Source of the DNA: Kofleriaceae bacterium
GTDB taxonomy: Bacteria > Myxococcota_A > Polyangia > Haliangiales > Haliangiaceae
Assembly (NCBI GenBank): GCA_965215005.1
Contig: CBDCCZ010000018.1
Location: 192,001 to 256,000 of the forward strand
DNA: 64,000 nt
Direction: 5' to 3'
Below, piece after piece: positions 37,025-64,000 of the stretch (position 1 is its first letter; each line of letters begins with the position of its first letter). The notes beneath the pieces were generated by a model. That model made no database searches. It had not been told where the DNA came from and saw only the letters and a program-made list of their open reading frames with translations. The position numbers and the translations under genes are program-made.

Positions 37025-37843
37025 TCACTGCCGCGCCAGGGCCAGCAGCTGCTCGGCGCGCGCTGGCGTATCGGCCAGCGCATAGGCGCCAAGTCCCACG
37101 CCCACCCCGGGATCCCGTCGCTGCCACGGACCGTCGGCAAGTAGCACAGCGCCGCCTGCTTCGGTCACCGCCAAAAAGCCGATGGCACGGCGGCGGTCGG
37201 TGTCGCCGAGGTGAACCGAGCCGAGGCCGCGGCCCAGTGCCGGTGCTGCACTATCGACCGCTGAGCACCGCGACAGCTCGACCTCGTACTGCTCCGCGAG
37301 CCGCTCGCGCAGCCGTCGCGGCGTTCGCGGCGGCACCAAGATCCGCGGCGGCAGCTCGGCCACGTGCACTCGCTCGGTGCGACCACCATCGGCGCAGCGA
37401 TAGCAACCACCACCCGCGATAGCCCAATACGTCACGCGCCACGCCGGATAGTAGAGAACCACCGCATCGAAGCGAGCCTGCTCGACCCACGCGCCCATCA
37501 CCGCGTAGTCCTTGGAACCGCGCAGATAGTTGAAGCTGCCGTCGATCGGATCGACCACCACGAGCGGCTGCGCGACGTCGGGCGGAGCGAAGCGAGCAAC
37601 GCTTTGCGTATCCTCTTCGGCATCCATGGCGACATCGCCAAAGCTCTCGGCCAGTCGCAGTAGCAGAACGTCCTGCGCCGCCAGATCGGCCGCCGAGAGT
37701 GCTTCTCCTTCCGGACACGAGAAGCCCTCTTTGCCGACGTTCTCCACTTCTCCTTGCAGGCGACGTGCAACGGCACCGGCTTGCGCCGCCGCGGCGCGAA
37801 ACACCTCGACGAACTTCTCCGCGCGCGGTTGAGCAGCTGCCAT
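37025..37843 (-). CDS. Inositol monophosphatase family protein
   Basis: AADLAAQ, AEE and VVDPIDGSFNY motifs. Confidence 0.85.
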   Translation of the reverse strand: MAAAQPRAEKFVEVFRAAAAQAGAVARRLQGEVENVGKEGFSCPEGEALSAADLAAQDVLLLRLAESFGDVAMDAEEDTQSVARFAPPDVAQPLVVVDPIDGSFNYLRGSKDYAVMGAWVEQARFDAVVLYYPAWRVTYWAIAGGGCYRCADGGRTERVHVAELPPRILVPPRTPRRLRERLAEQYEVELSRCSAVDSAAPALGRGLGSVHLGDTDRRRAIGFLAVTEAGGAVLLADGPWQRRDPGVGVGLGAYALADTPARAEQLLALARQ

Positions 37844-37888
37844 CCTCGCAACGTACGCTGGCGCTAGGCGCGCTGCAAACCCGTGAGC

Positions 37889-40054
37889 TCAGCCATCGAG
37901 CCGCGCCAGCGGTAGCCGGACGAGCGAGCCATCGGCAGCAAACGACTCGAGCCACTGGTCGGCGCCGGGATCGGCGCTGCCATCGAGCTCGCCGCTCTTG
38001 CGCGAAGCTCTCGCGTGGCGCCACCGCCCTGCTTCCCAGCCGTCGCCGGCATCTTCAAAGACCGCGCCGCGGGCGGTTTCTGGCTCCATCCCGGCGCGCC
38101 AGATCAACGGCTGCCACCAGGCGCTGCCGGTGTGCGCGCGCGGTTCCGTCATCGGCACCAGCGAGCCGCCGCGTTGCAGCAGTGGACAGCGTTCAAGCGG
38201 CGCCGACACCTGCACCCGCGCCGGCCCGCGATGCAGGCTGCCGGTCCAGAAATCTGTCCACCACCCTTCCGGCAGGTACACCTGCCGCTCGCGGATCCCC
38301 GGCGCCAGCACGGGCGCGGCCAGCAACGCATCCCCCAACATCAGCTGCGAGTCGAGTGCACCGACCTCGGGATCTTCAGGCCACTCATAGACCAGCGGTC
38401 GCAGGATCGGCTGCCCTTCGGTGGCGGCGAGGCGCGCCAGCGTATAGAGATACGGCAGCAGTCGATAGCGCAGCCGCAGTGCCTGGCGGCTCGCGGCCAG
38501 CACCTGCTCGCCGAATCGCCACGGCTCTTGCCGGCAGGTGTCGTGAGCGCTGTGATTGCGCAGAAACGGATAGAACACCCCGAGCCACAGCCAACGGGCC
38601 AGCAGCTCTCCGTCAGCATCACCGGAAAAACCACCGACATCCGCACCGCAGAAGGGCATGCCGCTGAGGCCGAGGTTGCATAGCATTGGAATGGATTGCG
38701 CCAGGTGCTCCCAATTGCTTTCGTTGTCACCTGTCCAGATGAACGCGTAGCGGTGAAGGTCCGCGTAGCCAGCGCGACTCAGCACAAACGGGCGTCGCTC
38801 CGGCCGCTGCGACGCGAGCGCCGCTTGCGTCGCTTCGCACATGCGCGAGCCGTAGAGGTTGTGGACCTGGTCGTGCGAGCCGCTCTGGTGAACGACATCG
38901 GCGGGAAAATCACAGGGAGCGCCCTTGCTGTCGTGGCTCACGGGCTCGTTCATGTCGTTCCAGAAGCCCGCAACACCAAGGTCGGTATAGAAACGGTGTT
39001 GCTCGCCCCACCACGCGCGGACCCGCTCGGAAGTGAAATCGGGCCACACGGTTCGTCCTGCCCAAAGACGCCCGTGCCACACGTGCCCGCGCCGGTGCAC
39101 GAAGACGTCCTCGGCCAAGCCGGCTTCGTAGAGCTGCACACCTGATTCGGCTTTGACCGCGGGATCGACGATTACCACCGTGCGGATATCATGCTCGGCG
39201 AGCGTGGCGATGGTCTGCGCCGGCTCGGGAAACGCGGCGCGATCGAAGGAGAACACCTCGAACGCGTCCATGTGGTCGATATCGAGCCACAGCGCGTCGA
39301 GGGGCAGCTGCCGGCGGCGATGCTCACGCGCCATCGCCACCAGCTCCTCGGCGCTCGCCTGGCCCCAGCGACTGTGATGATAGCCAAACGCCCACAGCGG
39401 CGGCATCGGTGCGGTTCCCATGAGCGCCGCGTACCGAGCCAGAATATCGGCTGGCCGGGGGCCCGCGAGCAAGTAGACGTCGAGCCGAGGAGACTGGGCG
39501 CACACTCGCACGTCGGCGCCGCGCAGGTCGATGGTGGTGCGGCGAGGCTCGTCGACGAACATCGCCGTGCAGTGGCCGTTGTCTTCGACGATCATCGTCA
39601 AGGTATGGGTGAGATACAGCGGGTCGTCCTCGGGTCCATACGCGGGCTTGTCGCTGTTCCAGTTGCTCCAACGCCTGCCGCGTTTGTCGAGACCACCGGT
39701 GCGCTCACCGAGCCCGTAGCAGCGATAGCCGCGGGAGGGCGTTAGCCAAACCTCGATGCCCTCGCGCTGATGCCACTGCAGCCGACTCTGATGCCACTGC
39801 AGCTCCGCAGCGGCGCCGCAAATGTGAACGACGTCTGAGTCGGCTTGCAGCTCGAGCCAAGGCGGCTCGTGGCGACAACGGACCGGGCGACGCGCTGGGC
39901 GAGCGACGCCTAAGGCCGCACCACCTCCCGCAGCAGCCCACGCCAACCGCCAGATTCCTGGCCCCGGCGAGCTCACCGTCAGAGCGCCGGCCAAGCCTGC
40001 GAAGTGCCATTGATCATGTTCTGCCGTGCACTGCGGCAGCGCCAAACGCGTCAC
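37889..40054 (-). CDS. Glycoside hydrolase family 31 (alpha-glucosidase)
   Basis: YGLGE, LDIDHM, GFWNDMNEP, WTGDN, GADVGGF and RNHS motifs. Confidence 0.92.
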   Translation of the reverse strand: MTRLALPQCTAEHDQWHFAGLAGALTVSSPGPGIWRLAWAAAGGGAALGVARPARRPVRCRHEPPWLELQADSDVVHICGAAAELQWHQSRLQWHQREGIEVWLTPSRGYRCYGLGERTGGLDKRGRRWSNWNSDKPAYGPEDDPLYLTHTLTMIVEDNGHCTAMFVDEPRRTTIDLRGADVRVCAQSPRLDVYLLAGPRPADILARYAALMGTAPMPPLWAFGYHHSRWGQASAEELVAMAREHRRRQLPLDALWLDIDHMDAFEVFSFDRAAFPEPAQTIATLAEHDIRTVVIVDPAVKAESGVQLYEAGLAEDVFVHRRGHVWHGRLWAGRTVWPDFTSERVRAWWGEQHRFYTDLGVAGFWNDMNEPVSHDSKGAPCDFPADVVHQSGSHDQVHNLYGSRMCEATQAALASQRPERRPFVLSRAGYADLHRYAFIWTGDNESNWEHLAQSIPMLCNLGLSGMPFCGADVGGFSGDADGELLARWLWLGVFYPFLRNHSAHDTCRQEPWRFGEQVLAASRQALRLRYRLLPYLYTLARLAATEGQPILRPLVYEWPEDPEVGALDSQLMLGDALLAAPVLAPGIRERQVYLPEGWWTDFWTGSLHRGPARVQVSAPLERCPLLQRGGSLVPMTEPRAHTGSAWWQPLIWRAGMEPETARGAVFEDAGDGWEAGRWRHARASRKSGELDGSADPGADQWLESFAADGSLVRLPLARLDG

Positions 40055-46432: not shown

Positions 46433-47770
46433 ATGAGCGCGAGCGAGTCAGGTATTTGGGTAACACGTGACGGAGGGCAGCCGCGTGTCGTCCTGCGCGC
46501 TGTGCGCATCGAAATCGTCAATGGACCGGGCTCGGGCACCTCGATGACGTTTCAGCAGCCACGCATTCGAGTGGGCGCGCTGCCGGAGAATGACATCGTG
46601 CTCGAGGATCCTCGCGCCTCCGGCGTGCACTTCGAAGTGATGCTCACCGAGACCGGGCTGCGCGTGCGCGATCTCAACTCGACCAATGGCACCGTGGTCG
46701 AAGGGGTTCGTATCGTCGATGGCTACGTTCAGCCGCTACAGCGGATCACCGCCGGACGAACGCAGCTGATGATCGTGCCGACCGGCGCAAGCCACGAGCT
46801 GCCACTCGCCACAGGCGCTGAGTTCGCCGACATCGTCGGTAGCAGCATCGCGATGCAGCGCGTGTTCGGAATGCTCGGCCCGGTGGCGCCAACCGATGCG
46901 ACGGTGCTGCTAACCGGCGAGACGGGCACTGGCAAAGAGGTCGTCGCAGAAGCGATCCACGGCGCCTCGCCGCGAGCCAATGGACCGTTTGTGGTCGTCG
47001 ATTGCGGCGCCATCCCCGCGACGCTGTTCGAAAACGAGCTCTTCGGCCACAAACGCGGCGCGTTCACTGGCGCCGACAGCGACGCTCCTGGGGCTTTCGA
47101 GCGCGCTCACGGTGGCACTCTCATGCTCGACGAAATCGGCGAGCTGCCACTCGACCTTCAGCCCAAGCTGCTTCGCGTCGTGCAGTCGCGGACGGTGCAG
47201 CGCGTCGGCGGGAGCAAGCGCGTGCCGTGTGACGTGCGCATCATCGCCGCGACCAACCGCGATCTACTGCGCGAAATCAATGGCGGCGGGTTTCGCGCCG
47301 ATCTCTACTATCGGCTCGCGGTCGCCCACATCGAGCTGCCACCGCTGCGTGAGCGCGATGGCGACATCGCGCTGCTCGCCCACTACTTTGCCAACGCCAT
47401 CACCGAGGATCCTGGGAGACAACTTCCAGCGGAGCTGATCGAGCAGTTCGAGCGGTACTCGTGGCCCGGCAATATTCGCGAGCTTCGCAACGCGGTCGAG
47501 CGCGCTCTCCTGCTTCCGCACCTGCCCCCTAAGCTCGGCCACGGCGTCTCGGCCGCGCCCGACGGCCCCGGATTTTGGGTTCCGGTCGACACCGCTATCG
47601 GATTCAAAGAAGCGAAACAACAACTCATCGATGAGTTCGACCGGCAGTACGTCACGCAGCTGCTTGATGAGAATCAGCGGAACGTTGCCCGTGCCGCGCG
47701 TGCCGCCGGAATCGACCGCGCGTCATTGCACAAGATCATGGCCCGCGTTGGCATCCAGCGGCCCCAATGA
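46433..47770 (+). CDS. FHA-domain sigma54-dependent enhancer-binding protein
   Basis: FHA ([12 protein letters not shown]), [29 protein letters not shown]-terminal Fis-type HTH. Confidence 0.93.
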
Positions 47771-48679
47771 TCCTGCTGCATCCAGCTCCTGCGCCGGCGG
47801 CTGAACCTCAACCACGGTTCCCACAGGGGGAAGCTCAGTCGTCGCCGCGTTGCCAATCTGCGCTTGCACGAAGATCAGCTGCGAAGCGGAATCGACCACC
47901 GCGGCCACCGAGGTGATCGAAGCCTGCCAAGACGTCGCGCCAAGATGGGCCGTTACCGGGGCGCCAACGACAAACGCGGGCGCCCGCTCTGGCCGCACGG
48001 CGAAGCGCAAATCGCGCTCCTGGGACATCAGCTCGACGATGGGCTGCTCGGCCGCAACGGTTGCGCCAGCATCGAAGCGCCGTGCCGCGACATGTCCGGC
48101 CAACGGCGCGCGTAAGGTTGCGCGCTCACGCAGCTGCGCGAGCTGATCGCGAACCGTGCGGTGACGCTCGATTCCCGCGAGGCTTCGCTCGAGCTCCGCC
48201 TGCCCTTGCGCCCGCGCCGACCGCGCATCGCGCAGCTGATTGCTCGCCGCCGCCTGCGCGCGCACCAGCTTCTCGACCGCCCTCACCTCTTGACGTGCCG
48301 TGCGCAACGCGACCCGAGCTTGGGCGGCAATTGCTTGCGCCTCACGCAATGCGCTATCGGCCGCTTCGAGCTCAGCATCGAGCTCTTCGGTCTGCAGGGT
48401 CGCCAATACCGCTCCCTCGGCGACGAAATCACCGACCTCGACGCGCATTTCTTCGACCCGTGCTGGCACCGGCAACGAGACGGCTACCTGGCGTCGCGCC
48501 ACGATGACGCCGATGAATCGCTCCACGCCCCTGCGCGCCGTCGTGGCCACAGGTCGCATCTGCCGCGTCGTAGGTGCCTCGAGCGGAGTGGCCTCACACC
48601 CGGCGATCATCGCGCAGCCGAGCAGTATCGGCAGGTGCCGCGCCACGCCATACCACGGTGAGTCGATGATCCTCTTCAT
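47723..48679 (-). CDS. Efflux periplasmic adaptor (HlyD/MFP) lipoprotein
   Basis: IAGC lipobox, lipoyl half-motifs ([19 protein letters not shown]), coiled coil. Confidence 0.85.
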
Positions 48680-50939
48680 TGGCTTCCTTCCAGTCATGCT
48701 CGGGCGCCGTCGGACGAGACCGTCCAGGAGGTGCAGGGTTTTTGCGAGAAGCGCCGAGCTGCGCGCGCACGAGTCGGGCGTAGCGTCCTCCCGCGGCCAG
48801 CAGCTCATCGTGGGTGCCTCGCTCGACGATGCGACCGCGATGCACCACCACGATGAGGTCCGCATCGACCACCGTGCTGAGGCGGTGGGCGATCTGGATG
48901 CGGGTCATGCGGAGCCGCTTGAGCTGACGCACCACGCGCGCCTCCGTCTCCGCATCGAGCGCGCTCGTGGCTTCGTCGAGCAGCAGCGCCACGGGGCGAG
49001 CGAGCAGTGCCCGCGCCAGCGCCAGTCGTTGCCGCTGACCGCCCGATAGCGACTGCCCGCGATCAGCGAGCGGAGTCTCGTAGCCCATCGGCAACTTGGC
49101 GATGTCATCGTGAATGCAGGCGGCCTTGGCCGCCGCAACGACGCGATCGAGGTCCGCATTCGGATCGGCCAGCGCGATGTTGTCGCGAATCGAGGTATCG
49201 AAGAAGTAGGGGTCTTGCGGCACCGTCCCCAGCTGCGCCCGAACCGCACGAAGATCGAGGCGTTCGAGCGGGTGCTCATCGAGCAAGATGCGTCCCGCGG
49301 TTGGCGCGTACAAGCCGAGTAGCAGCGCCGCAAGGGTTGATTTGCCCGATCCAGACTCACCGACGATGGCGACGTTGGTGCCCGCGGGAATCTGCAGCGA
49401 CGTGTCGCGGATGACGTCGGGACCGGCATCGCGATAGCGAAATGAAACCTGGTCGAGCTCGATTGCCCCCGTGAGCCGCGTGATCTTTCCCGGCTCCGAC
49501 TGTTCGGGCTCCACATCGAGAACGTCCTTGAGTCGGTCGAGGTGACCTCGTACCTGTTGCAGGGACAGCGCGCTCGCCACCAAGTTTCCAAGTGGCTCGA
49601 GGAACGAGCCGGCGAGCGCGTTGACCGCCAGCATGGTGCCAAGCGACAGCTCGCCGTGGACCACGCGCACCGCGCCGACGCTGAGGATTGCCAGCGGCGC
49701 GGCCGTGCGGAGGGCGCCGAGCAGCGCATCTACCGTGGCGCGCGACCGGCTCATGTCCAACCCGGCGTTGAGCATGTCAGCCAAATCATGGCTCCAACGC
49801 TCCACCGCCCGCTGCTCGGCTCCTGCTAGCTTCAGGGTGCCGATTGCCGACAGCGCTTGCACCAAGTACGACTGCGAGCGTGCGTTGGCATCGACCACAC
49901 TCGCCTCGAGATCCTCAAAGCGGCGCCGCGTCACGAGAAGGATCACGAGCTGCAGGATTCCAAATCCCGCCACCAGCGCGGCCACGATGGCGTCTGCAAT
50001 CAAGATGATGATCAGATAGAAGACGACGAGCCCGCCGTCGATGAGCGCCGACAACGTCTGCGACGTGAGTAGCTCGCGGATGGTTTGATTGCTGGCGATG
50101 CGCGACAGCAAATCTCCGGTCGAGCGGCGCTGAAAAAAACTATACGGCAAGCTCACCAGATGGCCGACGAAGCCGAGCGTCATCCGGGTATCCAAGTCGG
50201 TGCGCATTTGCAGCAGCAGATGCGCGCGGACCAGCGACGAGAGCATCTTGAACACGACCAGCGTTGCGAGGCCGAGGCCGATCAGGGTGAGCATGTCGAG
50301 ATCGCCCTGGGGAACCACGCGGTCGACGATCAAGCCGGTGAGCAGCGGGACGGCGAGCGCGAACACCTGCAGCAGTGCTGACATCGCAAGGATTCGCCCG
50401 AGTCGCGCGTTCATCTGTCGCAAGAACGCGCGCACCAGGCCGCCGCTCGGCAGCCGGCGCACGAAGGTGTCACCCGGCGCTAGCTCCAGAGCGATTCCGG
50501 TGAATGAACGCGACACCGCCTCGCGGCTCAGCGCGCGCCGCCCGCGCGCCGGATCCACGACGTGCACAAGGCCCCGAGCCACCCGCTCGAGCACCACGAA
50601 GTGATTGAATTCCCAGTGCAGGATGGTGCCCGCCGGCGCATGTTCGAGCTCGTCGAGCTCGAGCGACACGCCGCGTCCGCGCAAGCCGAATCGCTCACCG
50701 GCGGCAACGATGCCGCTGGCGCTGGTGCCCGCGTCGCTGGTCCCCGCCGCAACCCGCACCTCCCCCAGCGGTACGTGGCAGCCGTGATGCGCCAGCACCA
50801 TTGCCAGACACGCGGCGCCGCAGTCGGCAGCCTCCATCTGCCGCACAATCGGAATCCGCCGCCGGCGCGGCACGAGCTTGGTGAGAGCGGGAAATCGCTT
50901 CGTATCGACAGGCGCCAAGGCAGGCGGCGAATTGGCCAT
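48594..50939 (-). CDS. Peptidase-containing ABC transporter (C39 PCAT), double-glycine peptide exporter
   Basis: QMEAADCGAAC, HWEFNHFVV, ABC membrane domain, GESGSGKST, LSGGQRQR, LDEATSALD. Confidence 0.95.
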   Translation of the reverse strand: MANSPPALAPVDTKRFPALTKLVPRRRRIPIVRQMEAADCGAACLAMVLAHHGCHVPLGEVRVAAGTSDAGTSASGIVAAGERFGLRGRGVSLELDELEHAPAGTILHWEFNHFVVLERVARGLVHVVDPARGRRALSREAVSRSFTGIALELAPGDTFVRRLPSGGLVRAFLRQMNARLGRILAMSALLQVFALAVPLLTGLIVDRVVPQGDLDMLTLIGLGLATLVVFKMLSSLVRAHLLLQMRTDLDTRMTLGFVGHLVSLPYSFFQRRSTGDLLSRIASNQTIRELLTSQTLSALIDGGLVVFYLIIILIADAIVAALVAGFGILQLVILLVTRRRFEDLEASVVDANARSQSYLVQALSAIGTLKLAGAEQRAVERWSHDLADMLNAGLDMSRSRATVDALLGALRTAAPLAILSVGAVRVVHGELSLGTMLAVNALAGSFLEPLGNLVASALSLQQVRGHLDRLKDVLDVEPEQSEPGKITRLTGAIELDQVSFRYRDAGPDVIRDTSLQIPAGTNVAIVGESGSGKSTLAALLLGLYAPTAGRILLDEHPLERLDLRAVRAQLGTVPQDPYFFDTSIRDNIALADPNADLDRVVAAAKAACIHDDIAKLPMGYETPLADRGQSLSGGQRQRLALARALLARPVALLLDEATSALDAETEARVVRQLKRLRMTRIQIAHRLSTVVDADLIVVVHRGRIVERGTHDELLAAGGRYARLVRAQLGASRKNPAPPGRSRPTAPEHDWKEANEEDHRLTVVWRGAAPADTARLRDDRRV

Positions 50940-52940
50940 CTAGAAGATCCTCTCGAGTCCTGGGAACAAGCTAATGAGGAGCGACTCCGACCGAACCTCG
51001 ATGTCGACGGTGGCTGCCATCCCGTGATGAAAACGATGGGTGACGCCGTCGATCACGAATCCTTCGCTCGGCAACGCCACCCGCACGAACACCACCGCGG
51101 TGGTGATCGGAACGGCGTCGCCGAGCAGGCTGCCGAGACGACGAGCAGCCGCCCCCGGACCAAGCGCCTCATCGCCAACTTCGACGATCGGCAGCTCGAG
51201 ACGAACACCGCGATGGCCAGCAAGGGAAACACGGGCGCGATCGCCAAGCTCGATGAGAGGACGACGAGCGGCGGGAATGGCCGCCAAGACGCTCATTTCG
51301 GGGTCGGCAGCGACAACGGAGAGGATGGGCGCGCCGGCGGCGACGGTAGCTCCGCTGCGCAAGAGCACTTCGCCGGCCACGCCCGAACGAGGAGCGCGAA
51401 TCGAGTGTCGCTCTACCGCGCGTTCGGCCTGCTCACGCCGTGCACTCAGCTCCACGAGTGCCTGGCCTGCAACCGCGTCTCGCGGATCCATGAGACGCTC
51501 GATGAGGCGACGGTCGAACTGATGCTGGAGCGCGGCAAGCTCGGCTCGGGCACCCTCGTCGCGCAACTGCGCGACCACCTGCCCTGCTTGCACGCGCTCG
51601 CCCGGTTCGACGACGACAGCTTCGAGAACGCCGCTTAGCTCGGCAAGCGCGTCGCTGCGCTCATCAGCGACGACGACGGCAACGCCGCTCGCATACTCGC
51701 CGACCCGACCGACGCATAGATAGACCGCCGCGGCGGCGAAGAACGCGACGATGATCCAGTAGACGATGTTGACCCACGGTGAGTGCACGCGAACAACGTG
51801 CCCGCGGTCCCGCCGGCGCCGGTGCGCGTCGATCGCCTCAGGTCGAAACACGCTGGCTTCGGAGGCGACCGGTTGCGCCTCCAGCCCCCAGGAAAGCGCA
51901 TCGAGGAGAGGCCCACAGGCGGCGGCGAAATCGGCCGCGATGGCACGTTCGCGCGCATCGAAAGGAGCGCCACGCCCGTCTCTAGCCGCGATCCACACCG
52001 CGTGGAGCTCTTCGGCGCCATGGACCGGCTGCACCAGTAGCCGCGCCTTTGGGCCGAGGCCGAGGTCGTCGACCGCCGCGCAATATTGCGGCGCATCACC
52101 GGCCCGTTCGACCGCAAGGCAAACGCCTCGCCGGAGCGCCTCGCCAGCGAGACCGAGCAGGCCCTCGACCTCGAAATCATCACCGGGCTCATCTGCCTCG
52201 TACGCCAGAGTTGCTGCCTCCGCATCGACATAGAGACAACGCGCGCGATCGGCATCGATCAGTTGGGCGAGCTCACGGGCCATGACGCCGCTGCTGTCGC
52301 GCGTGCTTGGCTGCATCGCGACACGCCGCAGCGCAGCGCCGATCTTACCGCGGCCCCGGTCGGCTGGCGGTACCGCATCCACAGCCGTGGGGCTCCATTC
52401 TGCAACCGGGTCGACGCGCACCAGCGGCGCAGTGGGCTGCTCGGCGATCGGTAGCAGCTCGAGTGGGTTTGCGCTGGGGGCCGATGGCCACGATCTCGCT
52501 GCCGCGATGGCGCCGGCACCTGCCACTTGGCCGAACGGTGGGGACGGCTGTCTCACGCTTGGGAGTCCGCTAGAATCCATCCCGCGGTCGCTTGCGGCTT
52601 CGAGCAACGCGCTGCGAAGCGCGTGCGGCGACAAACTCCGGGACAACGGCCGCGCGCGCCGGGAGGGAAGCACCCCAGCAGCGTCGATGAGCGCGAACAC
52701 CGGGCCACACTGCCGCGTGCACAACCACTCAATCAGCGCTGCAGCGTGCTCGGTGGGCGCGCCGACGACGATGGCGTTGAACCCACGCTGACCGACAGCG
52801 GCAACGGCTTGCGCGGCGGTCTCGACGCCAACGACCTCACACGGCGCGAGGCGCTCGCGTAGCCACGACCAGGTTCTTTCGTCAGCGTCGCACACCAGAA
52901 ACGAAGCGAGCGGAGCCGGTGGTCGCGCCGGACGAGCCAT
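50940..52940 (-). CDS. HlyD-family secretion adaptor with N-terminal receiver-like and GAF domains
   Basis: GAF-like region (ADRARCLYVD...LLVQPV...PFDARE), VFRPEA motif, TM, lipoyl/coiled-coil HlyD body; abuts the PCAT start. Confidence 0.85.
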   Translation of the reverse strand: MARPARPPAPLASFLVCDADERTWSWLRERLAPCEVVGVETAAQAVAAVGQRGFNAIVVGAPTEHAAALIEWLCTRQCGPVFALIDAAGVLPSRRARPLSRSLSPHALRSALLEAASDRGMDSSGLPSVRQPSPPFGQVAGAGAIAAARSWPSAPSANPLELLPIAEQPTAPLVRVDPVAEWSPTAVDAVPPADRGRGKIGAALRRVAMQPSTRDSSGVMARELAQLIDADRARCLYVDAEAATLAYEADEPGDDFEVEGLLGLAGEALRRGVCLAVERAGDAPQYCAAVDDLGLGPKARLLVQPVHGAEELHAVWIAARDGRGAPFDARERAIAADFAAACGPLLDALSWGLEAQPVASEASVFRPEAIDAHRRRRDRGHVVRVHSPWVNIVYWIIVAFFAAAAVYLCVGRVGEYASGVAVVVADERSDALAELSGVLEAVVVEPGERVQAGQVVAQLRDEGARAELAALQHQFDRRLIERLMDPRDAVAGQALVELSARREQAERAVERHSIRAPRSGVAGEVLLRSGATVAAGAPILSVVAADPEMSVLAAIPAARRPLIELGDRARVSLAGHRGVRLELPIVEVGDEALGPGAAARRLGSLLGDAVPITTAVVFVRVALPSEGFVIDGVTHRFHHGMAATVDIEVRSESLLISLFPGLERIF

Positions 52941-52952
52941 GCAGCGGCCCTT

Positions 52953-52968
52953 TGCACCGGTCGTGCCT
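52953..52968 (-). promoter_or_regulatory. Sigma54 -24/-12 promoter of the export operon
   Basis: AGGCACGACCGGTGCA; nearly identical to the precursor promoter at 57565. Confidence 0.75.
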
Positions 52969-53056: not shown

Positions 53057-53110
53057 GCCCACTGCGCGCGCCAACGACGAGCGGTATAGTCTTTGCTCAT
53101 TGCGGTCGCG

Positions 53111-56100
53111 ATGCGATGGGAGTCCCCGAAAGGACGCGTAACTGCTGAAGAGCTGGCCGAAACTGTAGCTACCTCGGATACACAAGGTGTAACCAAAGAC
53201 CCAGGTCAGGGTCATCATCCCCCGCCGGACCTACCTAATCCTGGGGATCGGGTCGGCCGCTACCGGCTGGGCTCGGTCATCGGTAGCGGCGGCATGGGCT
53301 GCGTGATGCGCGCCGAGCACGTCGATCTAGGTCGCCAGGTGGCGATCAAGTTCATGCTCACAGCCAAAGAGCAGGCCGAGGCAAACGTCGTGCGCTTCTT
53401 TCGCGAAGCACAGCTCGTCAACCGCATTCGCCACCCGCACGTCGTCGACGTCACCGATATCGACTGGCTACCCAGCGGCGCCGTCTACATCGTCATGGAG
53501 CTGCTGCACGGGCGCTGCCTGCAACGGGCGATCAGCACCGGACCACTGCCGCTGGGTCTCATTCAACGCATCGCGCACCAGTCGGCGGCGGCGCTATCGG
53601 CGGTGCACGCGGCGGGCATCATTCATCGCGACATCAAGCCCGGCAATTTGTTTCTCTGTGATGATCAGGCTGAACCACACCTAAAGATCCTCGACTTTGG
53701 TGTCGCCAAGCTCGGGGCCGACAGCGTTGCAAAGGCAGACGTTCTCACCGTGGCGGGCGGAGTCGTCGGCACGGTCGCCTACATGGCTCCAGAACAAGCA
53801 CGCGCTGAAGAACTCGATGCCCGCGCCGACCTGTTCTCGCTCGCTGCGACGCTCTACGAAGCAGCCACCGGATATCGGCCGTTTCGCAGTCATGCGCTCG
53901 GCGCGTTGGTCCACGAGCACACCACGTACGTGCCGCCGCGGCTTTCACAGGTTTTAGGCGCCGGCGTCGTGCCGGCGGCCCTCGATGAGACCATCGCCAG
54001 TGCGCTTCAGGTCGATCCCCACCGACGCCCCCCCTCCGCCGCCGCATTTGCCGATGCGCTCTCCGGATCCACCCCGCCAGCACGCTCGCTATCGCTGCCG
54101 GCGCCTCGGCCGCGGGCTGCCCGTAGCTCCCGACACACCGCAGTCGCCGTATGCCTTCACGCGCATGGCGCTGGGGCGGCGTTACGTGCGATCGCCGAGG
54201 CCACCGAGGCTGCCGGCGGGCTCGTGCTCGAGCGAAAGGCGAGCGCGCTCACCGCACTATTCGGAGTTCCCGACGTCGACAGCAGCACGTTTGCCCGCGC
54301 GCTCGAGGTTGCCGAAAGCGTTCGCGACGTGAGCATCGTGCTCGAGCTCGGTCGTGTGCGGGTCCGGCGAGCTCCCACAGGCATCGTGGCGACAGGCTCG
54401 CTGCTCACGCGGCTAGCGCGGCTAGCTAGCATCACGTGCCCAGGCCTGCGACTTGGTCCCAACGCGCACCGCTGGGTGTATCCGCTCGCGAGCGGTGATG
54501 CCGAGATGCCGCGGCCCGACGCACGGCCATCGCATCACGGTGAGCTCGTTCGTATGGTCAGCGCCGCTCTGGCTGGCGATGACACCGCCTGCCACATCGT
54601 CATCGACGGGCCGCCAGGCGCGGGCACTACCTACAGCTTGCATACGGCGCGGGAGAAATTCGACGCCTCGGCCCGGTGGCACGCCGCTCGCGCGCGACCG
54701 GGCGATCGCGGTTTCTACGCCACTCTGACGCACCTCGTCCCTGCCCTGGCCGAGCAGCTGCGGGCAGCGCCGACGCGACACGATGAACGAATTGATGCGT
54801 GGCTAACCGCGGAGGTGAGCTCCGGGCCGTTGGTCATTGCCCTCGATGACGCCGAATACGCCGATGAAGCCAGCATGGCGACGCTGCGGCGCCTCGCGGA
54901 GCTCGGCCGTGGAAAGCCGATTGCCGTGATCGTGGCGGGTCACCAACTCGACCACGACGGCGGTCAGCGACTCTCACTCGAGCCGCTCGCCGACCGCGCA
55001 GCAACGCAGCTCGCCGCCGCCCTCGCTCCAGCGGCCTCACGCGCCGAGATTGATGCGGTCGTAGCACGCGCAGCGGGCTGTGCTCGTTACGTCGTCGAGC
55101 TCGCGCGAGACCTCGATGCGAATGGCTCCGGCGCCGAAGAGTCAGCAACATCCCCGGCGCTCGAGCTGGCGACACGAGCGCATCTCGACGCCATGCTTCC
55201 CCACGCCCGACGCATCTACGAAATCGTAGCGATTGCGCAACAGGCGGGCTGGGCGGAGCTATTGGTCGCGCTGGCCGTCGCCCGCGGCTCGACCGCCGAC
55301 GAGGCACGCGAAGCGCTCTGGGAGCTCGAGGAGTGCGGCGCGATCGTGGCGGCGGAGGACGGACCTGCGACTTCTGAGCGATTCGTCGCCGCTGTGCCGG
55401 TTCTCGCCGAGACGGCGTATCGCGAGCTCAGCAGCGAACAGCGCCGCGCCCTGCACCTCGATTTGGCCACCCGCCTCGAAGCGGAGGGTGAGGCCGAAGC
55501 AGTTCCCGCAATTCCGTCTTTGCTCGCCGCGGCCCGCCAGTATGCTGCCGCTGGCGCCATCGATCACGCCGCTCGCTGCGACCGCCGCGCAGGGGCCGCA
55601 CTGCTGGCCGCCGGCGATCATCGCGGTGCGCACGCTGCACTGGTGCGCGCCATCGACGCCAGCGCGCCGTCGAGCGAGCTGCTCGAACAAGCCGGCGACG
55701 CGGCGATGGTTGCCGCCGGTCTGGACGCTGCGCAAGACCTCTATGCGCGGGCCCTCGACCTATCGGAACCCGACGAGCTCACCCGCGCACGCCTATGGCG
55801 CAAGCTCGGCGACTGCGCGACCCAGCGTGGAGACAACGCTGTGGCGGCGGCGTACTACGAGCGGGGGATTGCAGCGCTGGCTCCCGATGGCGAGCTCACG
55901 CCGAGAGCAGAAGCCGACGCGGTGACCGCGGCAGAGCTTTACGCCGCGCTGGGATGGCTGCGCGGCTATCAGCTCGGCGATTTCGAGATTGGCTCGCAAC
56001 TCGGAGCTCGCGCGCTCGAGCTATTGGAGGGAACCGAGCACCAGCAGGCGCTCGCGCACGCTTTGTCGCGGTTGGGTGGCTGCTACATGCGAGGGGGGCG

Positions 56101-56797
56101 CTACGCGGAACAGCTCGCGTGCAACGAGCGGACTCTCGAGGTGTCCATCGGCCTCGGTGATACCTGGATGGAGATGATCGCTCGACTCAACCTCGGAATT
56201 ACCTACTTGACCACCGGAAGGATTACCGAAGCGCGCGCTCAAACCACCCGCGCCTTGGCAATGGCGCGACGCACCGACTCGGTTCGCGTCGAAACCGTGG
56301 CCACCAACAACCTTGGCGCCATCGAGCTCGAAGCCGGAGATCCGTATCGCGCACTCGCTCACTTTGAACGCGCCGCAGAGCTGGTGCTCCGCTCGGGTTA
56401 CCGCTCGGTGCTACCAGAGCTCCACCGCGTCCGCGCTCGCGCCTACGCAGCCATAAACGATCTCCACCGCGCCAACCGCGACGCCCGACGCAGCCGCGCG
56501 CTAGCAACGCAACTCGAGGCCAGCTTCGAGGCCGGGCTTGCCGCGCGCGTGTTGGCGCTGATCGCGCTCCGGCTCGACAACCCGCAGCGGGCGAGCGCGT
56601 TACTCGACGAAGCGGCGGCACAAATCGGCACGCGCGACCCGCTCGAGTGCGCCAGGCTGAGCGTCGCGCGGGCGCTGCTTGCGCGCGCGGAGGGCGCCCC
56701 CGACGCCGATGACCAACTCGCCGCCGCGCACTCCGAGCTCGAGCGCCTCGGCCTCGCCCATGAGATCGCCGCGTTTGCAGCCAACAGCATCCGCTGA
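53111..56797 (+). CDS. Ser/Thr kinase - degenerate AAA/STAND NTPase - TPR multidomain protein
   Basis: GSGGMG, VAIK, HRDIKPGN, DFG and YMAPEQ motifs; Walker A-like GPPGAGTT and Walker B VIALDD; C-terminal TPRs; start uncertain. Confidence 0.88.
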   Translation: MRWESPKGRVTAEELAETVATSDTQGVTKDPGQGHHPPPDLPNPGDRVGRYRLGSVIGSGGMGCVMRAEHVDLGRQVAIKFMLTAKEQAEANVVRFFREAQLVNRIRHPHVVDVTDIDWLPSGAVYIVMELLHGRCLQRAISTGPLPLGLIQRIAHQSAAALSAVHAAGIIHRDIKPGNLFLCDDQAEPHLKILDFGVAKLGADSVAKADVLTVAGGVVGTVAYMAPEQARAEELDARADLFSLAATLYEAATGYRPFRSHALGALVHEHTTYVPPRLSQVLGAGVVPAALDETIASALQVDPHRRPPSAAAFADALSGSTPPARSLSLPAPRPRAARSSRHTAVAVCLHAHGAGAALRAIAEATEAAGGLVLERKASALTALFGVPDVDSSTFARALEVAESVRDVSIVLELGRVRVRRAPTGIVATGSLLTRLARLASITCPGLRLGPNAHRWVYPLASGDAEMPRPDARPSHHGELVRMVSAALAGDDTACHIVIDGPPGAGTTYSLHTAREKFDASARWHAARARPGDRGFYATLTHLVPALAEQLRAAPTRHDERIDAWLTAEVSSGPLVIALDDAEYADEASMATLRRLAELGRGKPIAVIVAGHQLDHDGGQRLSLEPLADRAATQLAAALAPAASRAEIDAVVARAAGCARYVVELARDLDANGSGAEESATSPALELATRAHLDAMLPHARRIYEIVAIAQQAGWAELLVALAVARGSTADEAREALWELEECGAIVAAEDGPATSERFVAAVPVLAETAYRELSSEQRRALHLDLATRLEAEGEAEAVPAIPSLLAAARQYAAAGAIDHAARCDRRAGAALLAAGDHRGAHAALVRAIDASAPSSELLEQAGDAAMVAAGLDAAQDLYARALDLSEPDELTRARLWRKLGDCATQRGDNAVAAAYYERGIAALAPDGELTPRAEADAVTAAELYAALGWLRGYQLGDFEIGSQLGARALELLEGTEHQQALAHALSRLGGCYMRGGRYAEQLACNERTLEVSIGLGDTWMEMIARLNLGITYLTTGRITEARAQTTRALAMARRTDSVRVETVATNNLGAIELEAGDPYRALAHFERAAELVLRSGYRSVLPELHRVRARAYAAINDLHRANRDARRSRALATQLEASFEAGLAARVLALIALRLDNPQRASALLDEAAAQIGTRDPLECARLSVARALLARAEGAPDADDQLAAAHSELERLGLAHEIAAFAANSIR

Positions 56798-56931: not shown

Positions 56932-57138
56932 TTAGAACTTGCCGCCGCTGTAGAGGCCAGTACCGGTAACTTCGAAGTGAGCTTCCGCCGCCCGGCCGTG
57001 AGCCGCGAACGCCTCGCCACGGTTGTCCCACGCCCAGTCAGCCGCGCCCGTGATCGCTTCGCTAGCCGCGAGCTCGAGCAAGAACCTACCGACACCTCCG
57101 CCGGCGACATTTACAGTATTCAGATCGATGGTCTTCAT
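56932..57138 (-). CDS. Putative double-glycine-leader precursor peptide B (68 aa)
   Basis: MKTIDLNTVNVAGG leader plus 54-aa core; GGAG RBS, own sigma54-like promoter and downstream hairpin. Confidence 0.7.
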   Translation of the reverse strand: MKTIDLNTVNVAGGGVGRFLLELAASEAITGAADWAWDNRGEAFAAHGRAAEAHFEVTGTGLYSGGKF

Positions 57139-57564: not shown

Positions 57565-57580
57565 TGGCACAACCGGTGCA
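57565..57580 (+). promoter_or_regulatory. Sigma54 -24/-12 promoter of the precursor A-JmjC operon
   Basis: TGGCACAACCGGTGCA. Confidence 0.8.
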
Positions 57581-57622: not shown

Positions 57623-57838
57623 ATGAAGAACCAGCGAAAGTCTCTCTCTCTCCAAGATCGCGCGCAGCTCCACGATGCCGCGCTCGATACCGTCTCCGGT
57701 GGCACGACGATGCCGCGCATGCCACCGGTCGGTCCAGAGCCGTTTCCGTGGGGCATCATCATCGAGCCTCCTCCGACTGGAGGGCTGCCGTTCCCCACGC
57801 CTCCCGGATTTCCCTACGGCATACCGGGACTGGGCTAA
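57623..57838 (+). CDS. Putative RiPP precursor A: double-glycine leader plus Pro-rich core (71 aa)
   Basis: GAGGAG RBS; leader ends LHDAALDTVSGG (L-12, L-7, V-4, GG); core TTMPRMPPVGPEPFPWGIIIEPPPTGGLPFPTPPGFPYGIPGLG. Confidence 0.85.
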   Translation: MKNQRKSLSLQDRAQLHDAALDTVSGGTTMPRMPPVGPEPFPWGIIIEPPPTGGLPFPTPPGFPYGIPGLG

Positions 57839-57841
57839 CCG

Positions 57842-59080
57842 ATGGTCGCGGGTTCGTCCGTCGGAGCTCGAGAAGCGCACGATGAGGCTCCGGCGGCGGC
57901 CCTCGCCGCCCTGTTCGGTAGCGACGGCGCACGAGCTTTCGCCGGCCCACATTGGCCGCATCACCCGTTCGTCGTCCATCGCACGCTCTCGCAGCTGCCG
58001 AGCGCACTGCGGGCACCGCTGCTACTCGACCCGCGCGCCCTTGCTGCCGTCTACCGCGGCACCGTCGAGGTAACGAACGGTCGCGCGGGCCAATTTCGCC
58101 TCAGCGGCGTCGATCCGAATGTCTACTTTGAAGTATTAGGCCTTGCGACTCGCTTTAGCGAGCTCCAGCAATACGTGCCCCAAGCAGCATCGTACTTGCG
58201 CGAGCTCGAGGCCGCCCTGGGCGCGCCGAATGGCTGCGCGAGCCTTCATGCGTTTGTTAATCCGGCTCATGTGGGTCTCGCCGCGCACTGCGATCCGGCG
58301 GAGCATATCGCTGTGCAACTCGCCGGCAAGAAGCGGTTCAAGGTGCTGCGCAACGAGGTTCCCTATGCGGCAGTCTCCCATGGTGCTCGTCGCCCCCCTT
58401 CACGCCGCACACTAGCGACGATTGGTGGTCATCTGCCGCGCTGGGAGCGACTTCCCGAGACCGCAGAGACCATTGACCTCGAGCCGGGCTCGGTCCTATT
58501 CATGCCGCGCGGCACGTATCACGAGACTCTCGGCGGTGAAGGCGAGCCATCCGTCACGCTCGTCATTCAACTCGCAGTTCCCAGTGCAGCAGACGTCTTC
58601 TTAGACTATCTACGCGACTATTTGGCGCAGGCAACACCTTGGCGCCAGCCGCTCTTACACACCTGGCGCGGCGCCTCTCCGGCCGCACAGGCGCACCTTC
58701 GAGACAGTCTCGATGACCTTGCCGAGCGACTCCTCCGCCTATCGCCTCAACAAATGATCGATGCGCGCTCTCCTGCACTCACGCTCGATTACGCACGATT
58801 GGTTCGCGCGCCGGGCGTCGAGGTCCGCGTCACAATCGACGACGACCAAATGTGCGTCCAGTTCGTAGCCGACGATCGCAGAGCCAGCGCCCCGGTCGAG
58901 CTGGCAGCCGAGCTGAGCAGCGTCTTCGACTGGCTGCTCGCACAAACCGACCCATTCTCGCTCGCGGCCGCGCAACAGGCCCTCCCAGAGTGGGAGCCGG
59001 ACGCTATCGAGGCAGTGGCGCAGTTTCTGCTCGCGCGTGGTGCGTTGCTCTCGCTTCCCATCGAGCCGTTCAATGCGTAA
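57842..59080 (+). CDS. JmjC/Cupin_4 (YcfD/ROX-like) Fe(II)/2-oxoglutarate oxygenase
   Basis: AHCD..EHIAVQLAGKKRF and LEPGSVLFMPRGTYH give the HxD...H facial triad; C-terminal winged-helix-like region. Confidence 0.88.
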   Translation: MVAGSSVGAREAHDEAPAAALAALFGSDGARAFAGPHWPHHPFVVHRTLSQLPSALRAPLLLDPRALAAVYRGTVEVTNGRAGQFRLSGVDPNVYFEVLGLATRFSELQQYVPQAASYLRELEAALGAPNGCASLHAFVNPAHVGLAAHCDPAEHIAVQLAGKKRFKVLRNEVPYAAVSHGARRPPSRRTLATIGGHLPRWERLPETAETIDLEPGSVLFMPRGTYHETLGGEGEPSVTLVIQLAVPSAADVFLDYLRDYLAQATPWRQPLLHTWRGASPAAQAHLRDSLDDLAERLLRLSPQQMIDARSPALTLDYARLVRAPGVEVRVTIDDDQMCVQFVADDRRASAPVELAAELSSVFDWLLAQTDPFSLAAAQQALPEWEPDAIEAVAQFLLARGALLSLPIEPFNA

Positions 59081-61133: not shown

Positions 61134-62984
61134 TTACTGCGGCGTCTGACCCGGATTAAGGGCGCCAAAGGTGGAGTCGCCCTGGGTCCAGTCGCTCGAG
61201 TCGTTCGCGTCGGTGTCGCTTAGCCGCTGCAGCGAGGGTCCCGTCGATTCGGCTGGCGCGGCATTGTTGTTGTAGACCGCGTGCGGGTGGAAATCGCCAT
61301 CCACGAAGCCCATCGCTGGGACTCCGCCGCCGACCATCTGCCACTGCGCCGCCGCCGCCACCACCGCTGCCTGTGCTTCGGTGCCTGCAGCGGTATTGGG
61401 CTCGTACATCGGATCATCGACCGCTTGATCGGTCACGAAAACGGCGTCGAGAATCGCGCCAGCAGCGTCATAGAGGGTAAACACGTTGTTGGTGCGGGTG
61501 AGGCCGCTATCTGCCGACCACCAGTCGAACGCGGTGTCGTAGTTGCCAGCGTACTCCGCAGCCGGCTGGGCAGCGATGCCGTCGCGCTCGTCGACGACGC
61601 TAGCTGGGGCACACCTAGCGGTATCGAGGTGAACGACGATGAGGTCATTGGTAGCGACCTCGAAGTCGCTGAAGGTGATGAGCGTTTCGCGATCGCGTTC
61701 CTGCAGCACGACGCCGTTCATCGTGCCTCCGCTGAGCACGCGGAGCTCGATGAGGTCGCATTGGCCATTGTTCTCGCCAACGATGTTGGACTTCACCTCG
61801 TTGATGCGCACAGCGGCCACCGCGGTGTAGCCCGCAAAGGTAGCGGTGTTGGCGTCAGCTGCCACGGGCTCGCCATCGCGATCGGTCACGGTGTCGGCCA
61901 CGGTAACGGTGTAGTCGGCGGCGGTTTGCGCGGCGGTCGTGAGAACCACGGTGGTGTCATCGGCGGGGTCGAGCGCGGCGCCGGTGACGGCGAGCGCGGT
62001 GCCGCTGCTATCGATGATGCTGAAGCCAGCGGCTACGACCGAGTCAGTCGCAAGTGGCCGGCTGAAGGAGAGCCGCACCTCGGTGGCGGAGGCGGCAACC
62101 GCCGTGTTCAAGCGCGGCGAAGCGCATTGAGTGATCGTCACGTCCTCGGCGACGAACGCGGCGAGCTGCAGTCGGTCGCGGAATCGACCGACGGGCGTTG
62201 CTCGAAGTGAAAACATGCAGCCTTCGGTGAGACCGAGCTCGTCATCGAGCTCCTCGGGTACACGCAGCAAGAAATTTGCCTCACCCGTGATACCCGGGGT
62301 TTCGATCGTAGCGGCCTGAAATCCACTACCGGCGAAATCGAAGGCCGAGGTAACGGTGCCGCTCATCGTGATCAGCTCGCTCTCGTAGTCGTCGATGTTA
62401 GTCACCAGGTCGGTGGCGCTGGAGAGATCCTGCACGAGCGGCATGAGGTCGTTTGCTTCGCTGCTGCGAGCCCAGTCGGTGAGCGCCGTGGCTTGCCGCA
62501 ACCCATTGACGGTGCCCATCGAGGTAATCGTGAAGCTGACGGCATCGCCCACCGCGGGAGCTGGTGTCAACGTGGTCGGATCAATGGCGACGAAGAGCGC
62601 CGGCCCGGTTGCATCGACCTGCACGGTGAACCCGGCGACGTCACTGCCGATGCTCGGCTTTAAATAGGTTACGAAGGCGTTGACGATGGCGATAGAGAGG
62701 CCTTCGCCGTCGGCGGCCGCACGCGCAGCAGCGATGCCTTCTGCGCCGGGGTCCGTGGGATCGGTCGGGTCCGTGGGATCGGTCGGGTCCGTGGGATCGG
62801 TCGGGTCCGTGGGATCGGTCGGGTCCGTGGGATCGGTCGGGTCCGTGGGATCGGTGGGATCCGTTGGGTCCGTGGGCATCGCGTCGGGCATGTCATTGCC
62901 GGACGAGCCTTCGTCGTCGCCACAAGCGGCAGCCATCATCGCTGCCACAAACAAGAGCAGTCCAAACCATTTCAAGCGGAGCAT
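61134..62984 (-). CDS. Surface lipoprotein with PTD-repeat linker, Ig-like and lamin-tail-like domains
   Basis: Lipobox AAAC; (PTD)n; VRLSFSRPL Ig-like; VRINEV...IELRV lamin-tail-like. Confidence 0.75.
   Translation of the reverse strand: MLRLKWFGLLLFVAAMMAAACGDDEGSSGNDMPDAMPTDPTDPTDPTDPTDPTDPTDPTDPTDPTDPTDPTDPTDPTDPGAEGIAAARAAADGEGLSIAIVNAFVTYLKPSIGSDVAGFTVQVDATGPALFVAIDPTTLTPAPAVGDAVSFTITSMGTVNGLRQATALTDWARSSEANDLMPLVQDLSSATDLVTNIDDYESELITMSGTVTSAFDFAGSGFQAATIETPGITGEANFLLRVPEELDDELGLTEGCMFSLRATPVGRFRDRLQLAAFVAEDVTITQCASPRLNTAVAASATEVRLSFSRPLATDSVVAAGFSIIDSSGTALAVTGAALDPADDTTVVLTTAAQTAADYTVTVADTVTDRDGEPVAADANTATFAGYTAVAAVRINEVKSNIVGENNGQCDLIELRVLSGGTMNGVVLQERDRETLITFSDFEVATNDLIVVHLDTARCAPASVVDERDGIAAQPAAEYAGNYDTAFDWWSADSGLTRTNNVFTLYDAAGAILDAVFVTDQAVDDPMYEPNTAAGTEAQAAVVAAAAQWQMVGGGVPAMGFVDGDFHPHAVYNNNAAPAESTGPSLQRLSDTDANDSSDWTQGDSTFGALNPGQTPQ
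62749..62876. repeat. Coding tandem repeat, 18-bp unit (two 9-bp subunits), encoding about 14 Pro-Thr-Asp units
   Basis: Five perfect copies of gggtccgtgggatcggtc plus degenerate copies. Confidence 0.95.
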
Positions 62985-63267
62985 GCGCGCCTTATACACC
63001 ACTTCTGGGGCGATACCGTCTCGTCACTTCACTCGCTCGTTGCAAACGAACATAAGCGGAATTCCTTGGCATTTGCCGAACCAGCGACCAAAGCTCGGCG
63101 GCCGATGAGTCCTCCCATAACCTCCTGCGACCGAGTGAGCTGCCGATCTCTACGAACGGCATTCTTTTGTTGCAGCAGGTAGTCGATGGTCCTACTCCAG
63201 CGTTTGTAAGCAACACTTTGATTTGCAAGGAGTAACTGGAATGAACTGCAACAAACGTTCAAACGCG

Positions 63268-64000
63268 ATGAAGACTCTTTTGATGGTTGGGACCATAGGC
63301 ACGCTCGTCGGATGCGTCGATGCCGGCCCGCAAGCGCCTGCCGCGACCCAGAGCGCCGTCACTAGCGATGGCTTGGCGATGGTCAGCGGCGACTTCGACG
63401 GCGATGGCTCGCTCGACGCCGCGGTCGCCGCGATTGATTCGGACACTGGCGCTGGAGCGCTATCAATACTTGCCGGCGCGGGCAACGGCTACCGTCAACC
63501 GCGCGCTTTAACGGTTCCAGAAGCGGCACTAGCGTGCGACCAGCTGGCGCTCATCATCACCAATGGCAACACCGCGCGAGCCAACCTGAACCTCGTCTCG
63601 CCGTGCACTGGCGAGCATTGGCTGTATCGCGGCAGCGCCGATGGCCTCATGACCGATCCCCAGGCCGGAACGGAAGGCCCCGCGCTGCTCGCGGAGCTGG
63701 CCGCCCCCGAGGGCGTTGCAACGCTCGAGCAAAGCGTCCGTCAGCCGCCCGCAATCGATTGGGACGACATGACTGCGCTACAGCGGCACGTTGCGTTCTT
63801 CGATTACGACGGCGACGGCTACGTGACATTAGGCGAGGACTATCGCGGTCTCCGCGCTCTCGGGCTCGACCCCGTCAGCTCAGCAGCCTTTGCAACCATC
63901 ATCAACGGTGCGCTCGGAACCTCGACCATCGGCTACCCATCGCTCACGATCAGCATCTACGGCATCGCGGGGGCAGTGCACGGCAGCGACACCGGCATTT
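63268..64000 (+). CDS. Lipoprotein with FG-GAP-like motif and caleosin/peroxygenase domain (runs off window end)
   Basis: Manual translation: MKTLLMVGTIGTLVGC ... GDFDGDGSLD ... MTALQRHVAFFDYDGDGYVTLGEDYRGLRALG ... HGSDTGI. Confidence 0.8.
   Translation, partial: MKTLLMVGTIGTLVGCVDAGPQAPAATQSAVTSDGLAMVSGDFDGDGSLDAAVAAIDSDTGAGALSILAGAGNGYRQPRALTVPEAALACDQLALIITNGNTARANLNLVSPCTGEHWLYRGSADGLMTDPQAGTEGPALLAELAAPEGVATLEQSVRQPPAIDWDDMTALQRHVAFFDYDGDGYVTLGEDYRGLRALGLDPVSSAAFATIINGALGTSTIGYPSLTISIYGIAGAVHGSDTGI

Follow-up and report, generated by a model that had tools for sequence, protein, structure and literature searches.

The stretch analysed here (the window) comprises 64,000 nucleotides of contig CBDCCZ010000018.1 of a Kofleriaceae bacterium and encodes, on its forward strand, a 412-residue JmjC-type Fe(II)/2-oxoglutarate (2OG) oxygenase (57842–59080) behind a 71-residue peptide precursor (57623–57838). 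Because the pairing of precursor and oxygenase recurs in related bacteria, the enzyme probably acts on the peptide and not on the ribosome; it likely hydroxylates the adjacent peptide before the likely secretion of the latter. The overall reading that we favour, with moderate confidence, is that of a leader-guided hydroxylase of a peptide made on the ribosome and modified after translation (RiPP), which acts at G-Phi-P motifs of the core (Phi being F, W, I or L) and whose product is exported by a peptidase-containing ABC transporter (PCAT). Its starting points are observations, namely the gene anatomy, the catalytic triad, the recurrent linkage, the sharing of a motif and a pair of promoter-like sites.

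The oxygenase was defined by its open reading frame (ORF), Pfam matches and an AlphaFold model with a predicted local distance difference test score (pLDDT) of 80.6. It matches JmjC_2 (PF08007, E 8e-9) and Cupin_8 (PF13621, E 6e-9), both of which exceed the cut-off; NCBIfam assigns no family to the oxygenase, to either of two small peptides encoded nearby or to four relatives. The JmjC core (approximately residues 131–245) is followed by a helical segment (residues 249–317, helices predicted by the model) and a C-terminal winged-helix domain (residues 309–412; 58766–59077), which is predicted to have the fold of a RiPP recognition element (RRE). Of the features of the MINA/NO66/YxbC/YcfD clade, the HxD...H core with a basic 2OG-binding residue and the C-terminal winged-helix domain are present; for the helical dimerisation segment that follows the core in that clade, the helices predicted at residues 249–317 are a candidate. 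H149, D151, G162, K164 and H227 are unchanged in 72 of 72 aligned relatives, in agreement with the intact triad described in an earlier note on this DNA. That note also took a QxxGxK motif as typical of ribosomal oxygenases; the motif does occur in NO66 and YxbC, but E. coli YcfD has QxxGxR, and QxxGxK is not diagnostic of these enzymes.

Only 3 nt separate the stop codon of the 71-residue ORF from the start codon of the oxygenase, which bears out the tight coupling noted earlier. The precursor gene is preceded by the Shine-Dalgarno sequence GAGGAG and encodes a 27-residue double-glycine leader that terminates in Val-Ser-Gly-Gly, followed by a 44-residue core that is rich in Pro and contains G-[FIL]-P three times. 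Leu occupies positions -20, -12 and -7 of the leader and Val position -4. The Gly-Gly end and the hydrophobic residues at -4, -7 and -12 that are the rule for PCAT substrates are found as Val-4, Leu-7 and Leu-12, and the two Leu residues at -12/-7 constitute an L(X)4L motif. Pfam holds no family for this precursor or for the second small peptide (56932–57138), and the ESM Atlas yielded for the precursor only leads below 0.9. When 31969 short ORFs of the same genome were searched with a hidden Markov model of the leader, no other G-Phi-P precursor was found among the best 15 matches.

Scans of genome and metagenome contigs identified 160 loci, 15 of which were chosen as close by score; L043 and L128 were left out though high-scoring. 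In a FastTree phylogeny of 74 proteins and 383 columns, with the root imposed on a single YcfD, the window enzyme and those 13 of the close loci that entered the tree form one clade with a Shimodaira-Hasegawa (SH) support of 1.0, and L043 and L128 fall in its sister group. The clade is myxobacterial, its named hosts including Haliangium sp. and a Nannocystaceae bacterium. A short leader-bearing peptide is encoded nearby in 15 of the 16 clade loci for which DNA was at hand; the sole locus counted without a peptide, L188, lacks its upstream DNA. The distance to the enzyme is at most 150 nt in 14 of the 16, ten having an upstream peptide of the double-glycine type (truncated in L121) and four (L122, L124, L125 and L177) a downstream peptide whose leader ends in TGVRAG. 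In L042, a double-glycine peptide is located 2.0 kb upstream of the enzyme. The gene pair of L039, L040, L041 and L120 stands amid unrelated genes, with no further tailoring enzyme recognised. Linkage to a precursor across the clade supports the peptide tailoring that the earlier note had suggested.

Outside the clade, the leader pattern matched twice in 81 full-length loci with adequate flanks, and both matches were judged spurious, which leaves no credible precursor in any of the 81; the screen covered 700 nt on each side and ATG starts, so that a placement as in L042 would escape it. Intermediate myxobacterial homologues (L205–L207 and L209–L212, E 1e-47 to 1e-66), which are outside the clade count, have no double-glycine precursor nearby (L208 is identical to L041). 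On viral contigs there were 14 pattern matches, none of which was confirmed. The sister clade (the non-clade loci among L043–L198) is widespread in proteobacteria, among them Pseudomonas, Janthinobacterium, Caballeronia and Sulfuricaulis, and has the full JmjC and RRE-fold architecture without an adjacent precursor.

One locus of the clade (L030:6430-12000, genome G011) is more elaborate: the gene of a double-glycine precursor, whose core has 9 residues, is followed by those of a TylF methyltransferase, a kinase, a pair of JmjC enzymes, Fur and a TonB receptor. In another locus (L125:7263-11569), genes for JmjC, the peptide, a Cys-containing ORF of 137 residues without a Pfam match, HlyD and a C39 transporter are arranged in series; in L124 and L177 the peptide is followed by the start of an ORF that resembles the 137-residue ORF. 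A second Pro-rich double-glycine peptide is encoded immediately 3' of the JmjC gene in L039 (7331–7534).

The cores share a motif. G-[F/W/I/L]-P is found in the cores of 14 of the 15 precursor-bearing loci, often repeatedly, several of them (those of L040, L041 and L039) being built of tandem repeats; the cores of L127 and L125 are short and hold a single motif each. With one representative taken from each of six lineages, G-Phi-P is present in all six, whereas none of 5000 shuffles placed any such motif in all six lineages, the choice of motif being allowed for; the background frequency of G-Phi-P is 3% of 45-residue windows. The Gly and Pro of the motif are constant and its middle residue varies between Ile, Leu, Phe and Trp, as exemplified by P0166, which has Leu where its relatives show Phe. 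The leaders are conserved as well: among ten clade leaders, Leu -20, Leu -12 and Leu -7 are each present in nine and Val -4 in seven, and the conservation at Leu -20 and -15 lies outside the LahT-type positions.

A sigma54-type -24/-12 site (57565–57580, forward strand), which agrees with the consensus at 10 of 12 positions, is situated 57 nt before the ATG of the precursor; the earlier note had put the gene pair under one sigma54 promoter. As a bare pattern it is weak, with one match in the window versus 0.33 expected and a match in 28 of 100 shuffles; since sites that score 10/12 are rare genome-wide (0.015 per 300 nt), its position is more telling than the pattern itself. A twin site (52952–52968, reverse strand) lies immediately 5' of an exporter operon. 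This place and the precursor side, with its match at 57566, are the only two in the 6.2-Mb assembly at which the common pattern GGCAC.ACCGGTGCA is present. Sites of 9/12 are present ahead of the precursor in L039, L119 and L040 and absent there in L041, L120, L123, L126 and L127. A scan for sigma70 promoters and terminators remained at chance level. The exporter operon (HlyD-PCAT-membrane-fusion protein, 52940–47723, reverse strand), 4.7 kb upstream, consists of a secretion adaptor of the HlyD family that has a long extension at its N-terminus (50940–52940), a C39 peptidase-containing ABC transporter (48594–50939; PF03412, E 5e-34, with visible Cys and His motifs) and a second, RND_mfp-like membrane-fusion adaptor (47723–48865). 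A C39 transporter is thus available to the precursor within the window, and this PCAT likely cuts off the leader and secretes the core. Among eight loci with longer flanks, three have a PCAT near the enzyme, and C39 domains were found somewhere in the genomes of all four relatives tested.

In the mechanism that we propose, precursor and enzyme would be co-transcribed from the sigma54 promoter. The C-terminal domain would then probably grip Leu(-12) and Leu(-7) of the leader, as suggested by its predicted fold and by the precedent of MppG, a RiPP hydroxylase described below, and the JmjC core would oxidise the G-Phi-P motifs with Fe(II) and 2OG. Within the motif, Pro is favoured as the target because Gly and Pro are fixed while the middle residue varies; it is the leading candidate, somewhat short of an even chance. 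Next comes the C-beta of the hydrophobic residue in front of it, a serious alternative because MppG beta-hydroxylates Trp and CzlI hydroxylates Phe; a position elsewhere is the least probable. The place of the Pro, two residues past a Gly, is also that of the histidines which MINA and NO66 modify. Finally, the PCAT would cleave behind Gly-Gly and secrete the hydroxylated core of 44 residues, which would likely serve as an extracellular interbacterial or signalling peptide, the weakest step of the scheme.

Several observations weigh against this scheme. The clade loci reduce to approximately seven independent lineages. The window core is rich in Pro and Gly, so that the chance of one motif is P=0.49 and that of three P=0.018. 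The L042 precursor has a leader but neither Pro nor G-Phi-P in its core (this core was discovered after the shuffle test and is outside it), and the second peptide of L039 is likewise without G-Phi-P. The pattern of the twin promoter-like sites was defined from both sites after they had been seen, and the exporter-side site implies a transcription start approximately 2 nt before the ATG of HlyD. In five of the eight longer loci there is no PCAT in the DNA examined. A Foldseek search with the C-terminal domain gave no match at E≤0.001, and its fold by itself does not prove leader binding, because the orphan sister clade and the ribosomal oxygenases also carry the domain. For the winged helix of the latter, the function is stated to be unclear (PMC6182338).

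The remaining objections lead to a different role for the leader. The enzyme might read the core motif directly, in which case the C-terminal domain would be a structural module kept by inheritance, and only the PCAT would make use of the leader. L122, L124, L125 and L177 retain G-W-P yet have another type of leader and a precursor placed downstream of the enzyme, and three of them nest in the tree within a subclade with G-F-P-P, such that the core motif persists while leader type and gene order shift. In addition, the C-terminal domain is similarly conserved in the orphan sister clade and in the precursor-linked clade (mean identity 0.28 versus 0.30), and the conservation of Leu -12, Leu -7 and Val -4 has another sufficient cause, since PCAT recognition uses the positions -12/-7/-4 (PMC10885120). 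Yet conservation of the leader reaches Leu -20 and -15, past the LahT-type positions, W384 of the C-terminal domain is invariant within the clade, and MppG and CzlI require the leader or flanking sequence. Direct reading of the core appears unlikely on balance; it is the alternative that survives best. Less likely still is that the enzyme acts on the precursor by another chemistry, for example desaturation or an oxidation at the Gly C-alpha that leads to backbone cleavage of multi-repeat cores. The motif Gly is as invariant as the Pro, tandem-repeat cores exist, and oxidative backbone cleavage has been reported for alphaKG-HEXXH enzymes (PMC12636437), whereas the characterised relatives CzlI, BipG/PbsQ, MppG and YcfD/NO66/MINA are all described as hydroxylases.

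The relation to the ribosomal oxygenases was examined separately. In BLASTP against E. coli YcfD, the best segment shows 31% identity over 49 residues (E 0.004), and the family profile aligns with YcfD at 18% over 206 columns of the JmjC part only. PF20514 (ROXA-like_wH) matches YcfD with E 3e-34 and has no match in the whole oxygenase, the C-terminal 104 residues of which match no Pfam family at E≤1. The E. coli gene order pepT-roxA-phoQP-purB differs from the window neighbourhood, which has no purB or phoPQ. A search of PDB sequences gave 18 matches at E≤1, with YxbC as the best, NO66/MINA at E 0.004 to 0.02 and no YcfD. In a fold search with the whole-chain AlphaFold model, YxbC took the first rank, followed by NO66, and YcfD came at ranks 33–40. 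Judged from sequence and model, the enzyme has the three-part architecture of the ribosomal oxygenases, as the earlier note had stated, but belongs to a different branch; the low similarity, the missing PF20514 and the different gene context show that it is not a YcfD/RoxA orthologue. The claim that it was repurposed from a ribosomal oxygenase fared less well: the nearest solved relative is YxbC, and peptide modification has been argued to be ancestral (Iyer et al. 2010, PMC2938197). The direction of evolution is outside the reach of a tree with one YcfD and an imposed root. Since JmjC RiPP hydroxylases have been described and peptide modification is proposed as ancestral, a ribosomal origin is neither needed nor shown. 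Of 147 genomes that represent the order, 4 contain a match to the clade profile at E≤1e-40, a pattern that is not that of a housekeeping enzyme. The view that the enzyme hydroxylates a ribosomal or other cellular protein, the peptide gene being a mere neighbour or regulator, is highly improbable: the whole-chain fold fits NO66/MINA/YcfD, the slot of YcfD is apparently open (no PF20514 gene in the assembly, which is 92.8% complete, or in five relatives) and one relative was automatically named 'L16 Arg81 hydroxylase', but the distance from YcfD, the patchy occurrence and the precursor linkage all speak against it.

Other genes of the region may take part in the system. An FHA-domain sigma54 enhancer-binding protein (46433–47770, forward strand) is a candidate activator of the twin promoters, and a Ser/Thr kinase-AAA-TPR protein encoded between the two operons (53093–56797, forward strand) is its candidate partner. 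The second small peptide (56932–57138, reverse strand; 68 residues) is of the double-glycine type, without G-Phi-P, bacteriocin-like and divergent from the precursor; a 9/12 sigma54-like site lies 79 nt upstream of its gene, and it is possibly a second cargo of the PCAT. Farther downstream, the window encodes a lipoprotein-like ORF that combines a long tandem repeat of Pro-Thr-Asp with a Big_5/CopC-like domain (61134–63002, reverse strand) and FG-GAP repeats joined to a caleosin-like EF-hand domain (63223–63999, forward strand; PF05042, E 8e-17) in an ORF that is cut by the window end. Elsewhere in the genome (G000), a second HlyD-PCAT-membrane-fusion protein set is present at C4:24037-32074, with its ABC transporter split across two overlapping ORFs. 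Orphan double-glycine peptides are encoded at C31 around 31800 (forward strand) and 37800–38110 (reverse strand) and at C4:4293-4481, two of them in tandem beside a Ser/Thr kinase. The genome's other three JmjC genes (L001–L003; C14:131643-137846) flank a long double-glycine precursor, which we take to be of the nitrile-hydratase-leader type, and a 631-residue ORF without an obvious cyclase part, presumably LanM-dehydratase-like; both labels come from inspection of the sequences. All four JmjC genes of the genome are thus in RiPP-like settings.

It is possible, and put forward tentatively, that the clade represents a JmjC-fold prolyl hydroxylase that by itself defines the class of an as yet undescribed RiPP family, the secreted hydroxyproline peptides of myxobacteria, with the winged-helix module of NO66/MINA53/YcfD as its leader-binding domain. 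If so, the human winged helix of unclear function would be an inherited peptide-recognition element; the structural tie between RRE and ribosomal-oxygenase winged helix turns the function of that domain into a concrete hypothesis. The cassette of precursor and one oxygenase is minimal and testable, with approximately seven independent natural substrate variants that have the G-Phi-P motif in common. Should Pro be the target, JmjC chemistry would gain prolyl hydroxylation, which in RiPPs is known from the alphaKG-HExxH enzyme PesO (PMC13060819), and a leader-directed tool for placing hydroxyproline in peptides would become available.

The concept itself is known, including the RRE equivalent that the earlier note had supposed at the C-terminus, since JmjC RiPP hydroxylases (CzlI, BipG) and fusions of JmjC with an RRE (MppG, RREFam042) have been published; new are the minimal two-gene cassette, the common core motif and a possible prolyl specificity. 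A literature search with subscription papers largely outside its range revealed no account of the myxobacterial two-gene cassette, of the G-Phi-P cores or of a JmjC prolyl hydroxylase, nor any paper on the present family. YxbC of B. subtilis (PDB 1VRB/7ZCC) is the best match in sequence (E 1e-15, residues 33–309) and in fold (E 5e-19, root-mean-square deviation 3.6). It differs by its size of approximately 340 residues, with an alignment that stops at residue 309, so that it lacks most of the C-terminal domain, and it is named only as putative or uncharacterised. YcfD/RoxA, NO66 and MINA53 share the sequence of JmjC, helical segment and winged helix, and their chemistry is C-3 hydroxylation (PMC5862942). 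Structural identity to them is 15–21%, and the window enzyme differs from them by its lack of PF20514, its gene context and its patchy distribution. RREFam042 'Cupin_JmjC_RRE' (PMC12710340) resembles the window enzyme by description: a JmjC domain is joined in it to an RRE-like fold, and homologues from bacteria are found in RiPP-like surroundings; the passage concerned names no precursor family or chemistry.

A close parallel by description is MppG of the Moorena producens mpp RiPP cluster (bioRxiv 10.64898/2026.10.04.756588), a leader-dependent Fe/2OG hydroxylase with a C-terminal RRE. Its His-x-Asp...His residues, 141/143/229, are numbered almost as in the window enzyme (149/151/227), and it contacts an L(X)4L motif at -12/-7 of the leader, which the window leader also has. 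MppG, however, beta-hydroxylates Trp in a lanthionine-cyclised core behind a 77-residue Nif11 leader and belongs to a multi-enzyme cluster, whereas the window system has a 27-residue leader, a linear Pro-rich core and no other adjacent modifying enzyme. CzlI (curacozole, PMC11575548) and BipG/PbsQ (biphenomycin, PMC12707348, PMC12257519) are likewise JmjC-family hydroxylases of RiPP precursors. The top structural match of CzlI is also YxbC, and CzlI needs sequence that flanks its target. CzlI converts Phe to Tyr and BipG/PbsQ form gamma-hydroxy-Orn, all of them as accessory tailoring enzymes in large clusters; the window JmjC enzyme, by contrast, appears to be the sole modifying enzyme and is paired with a G-Phi-P core.
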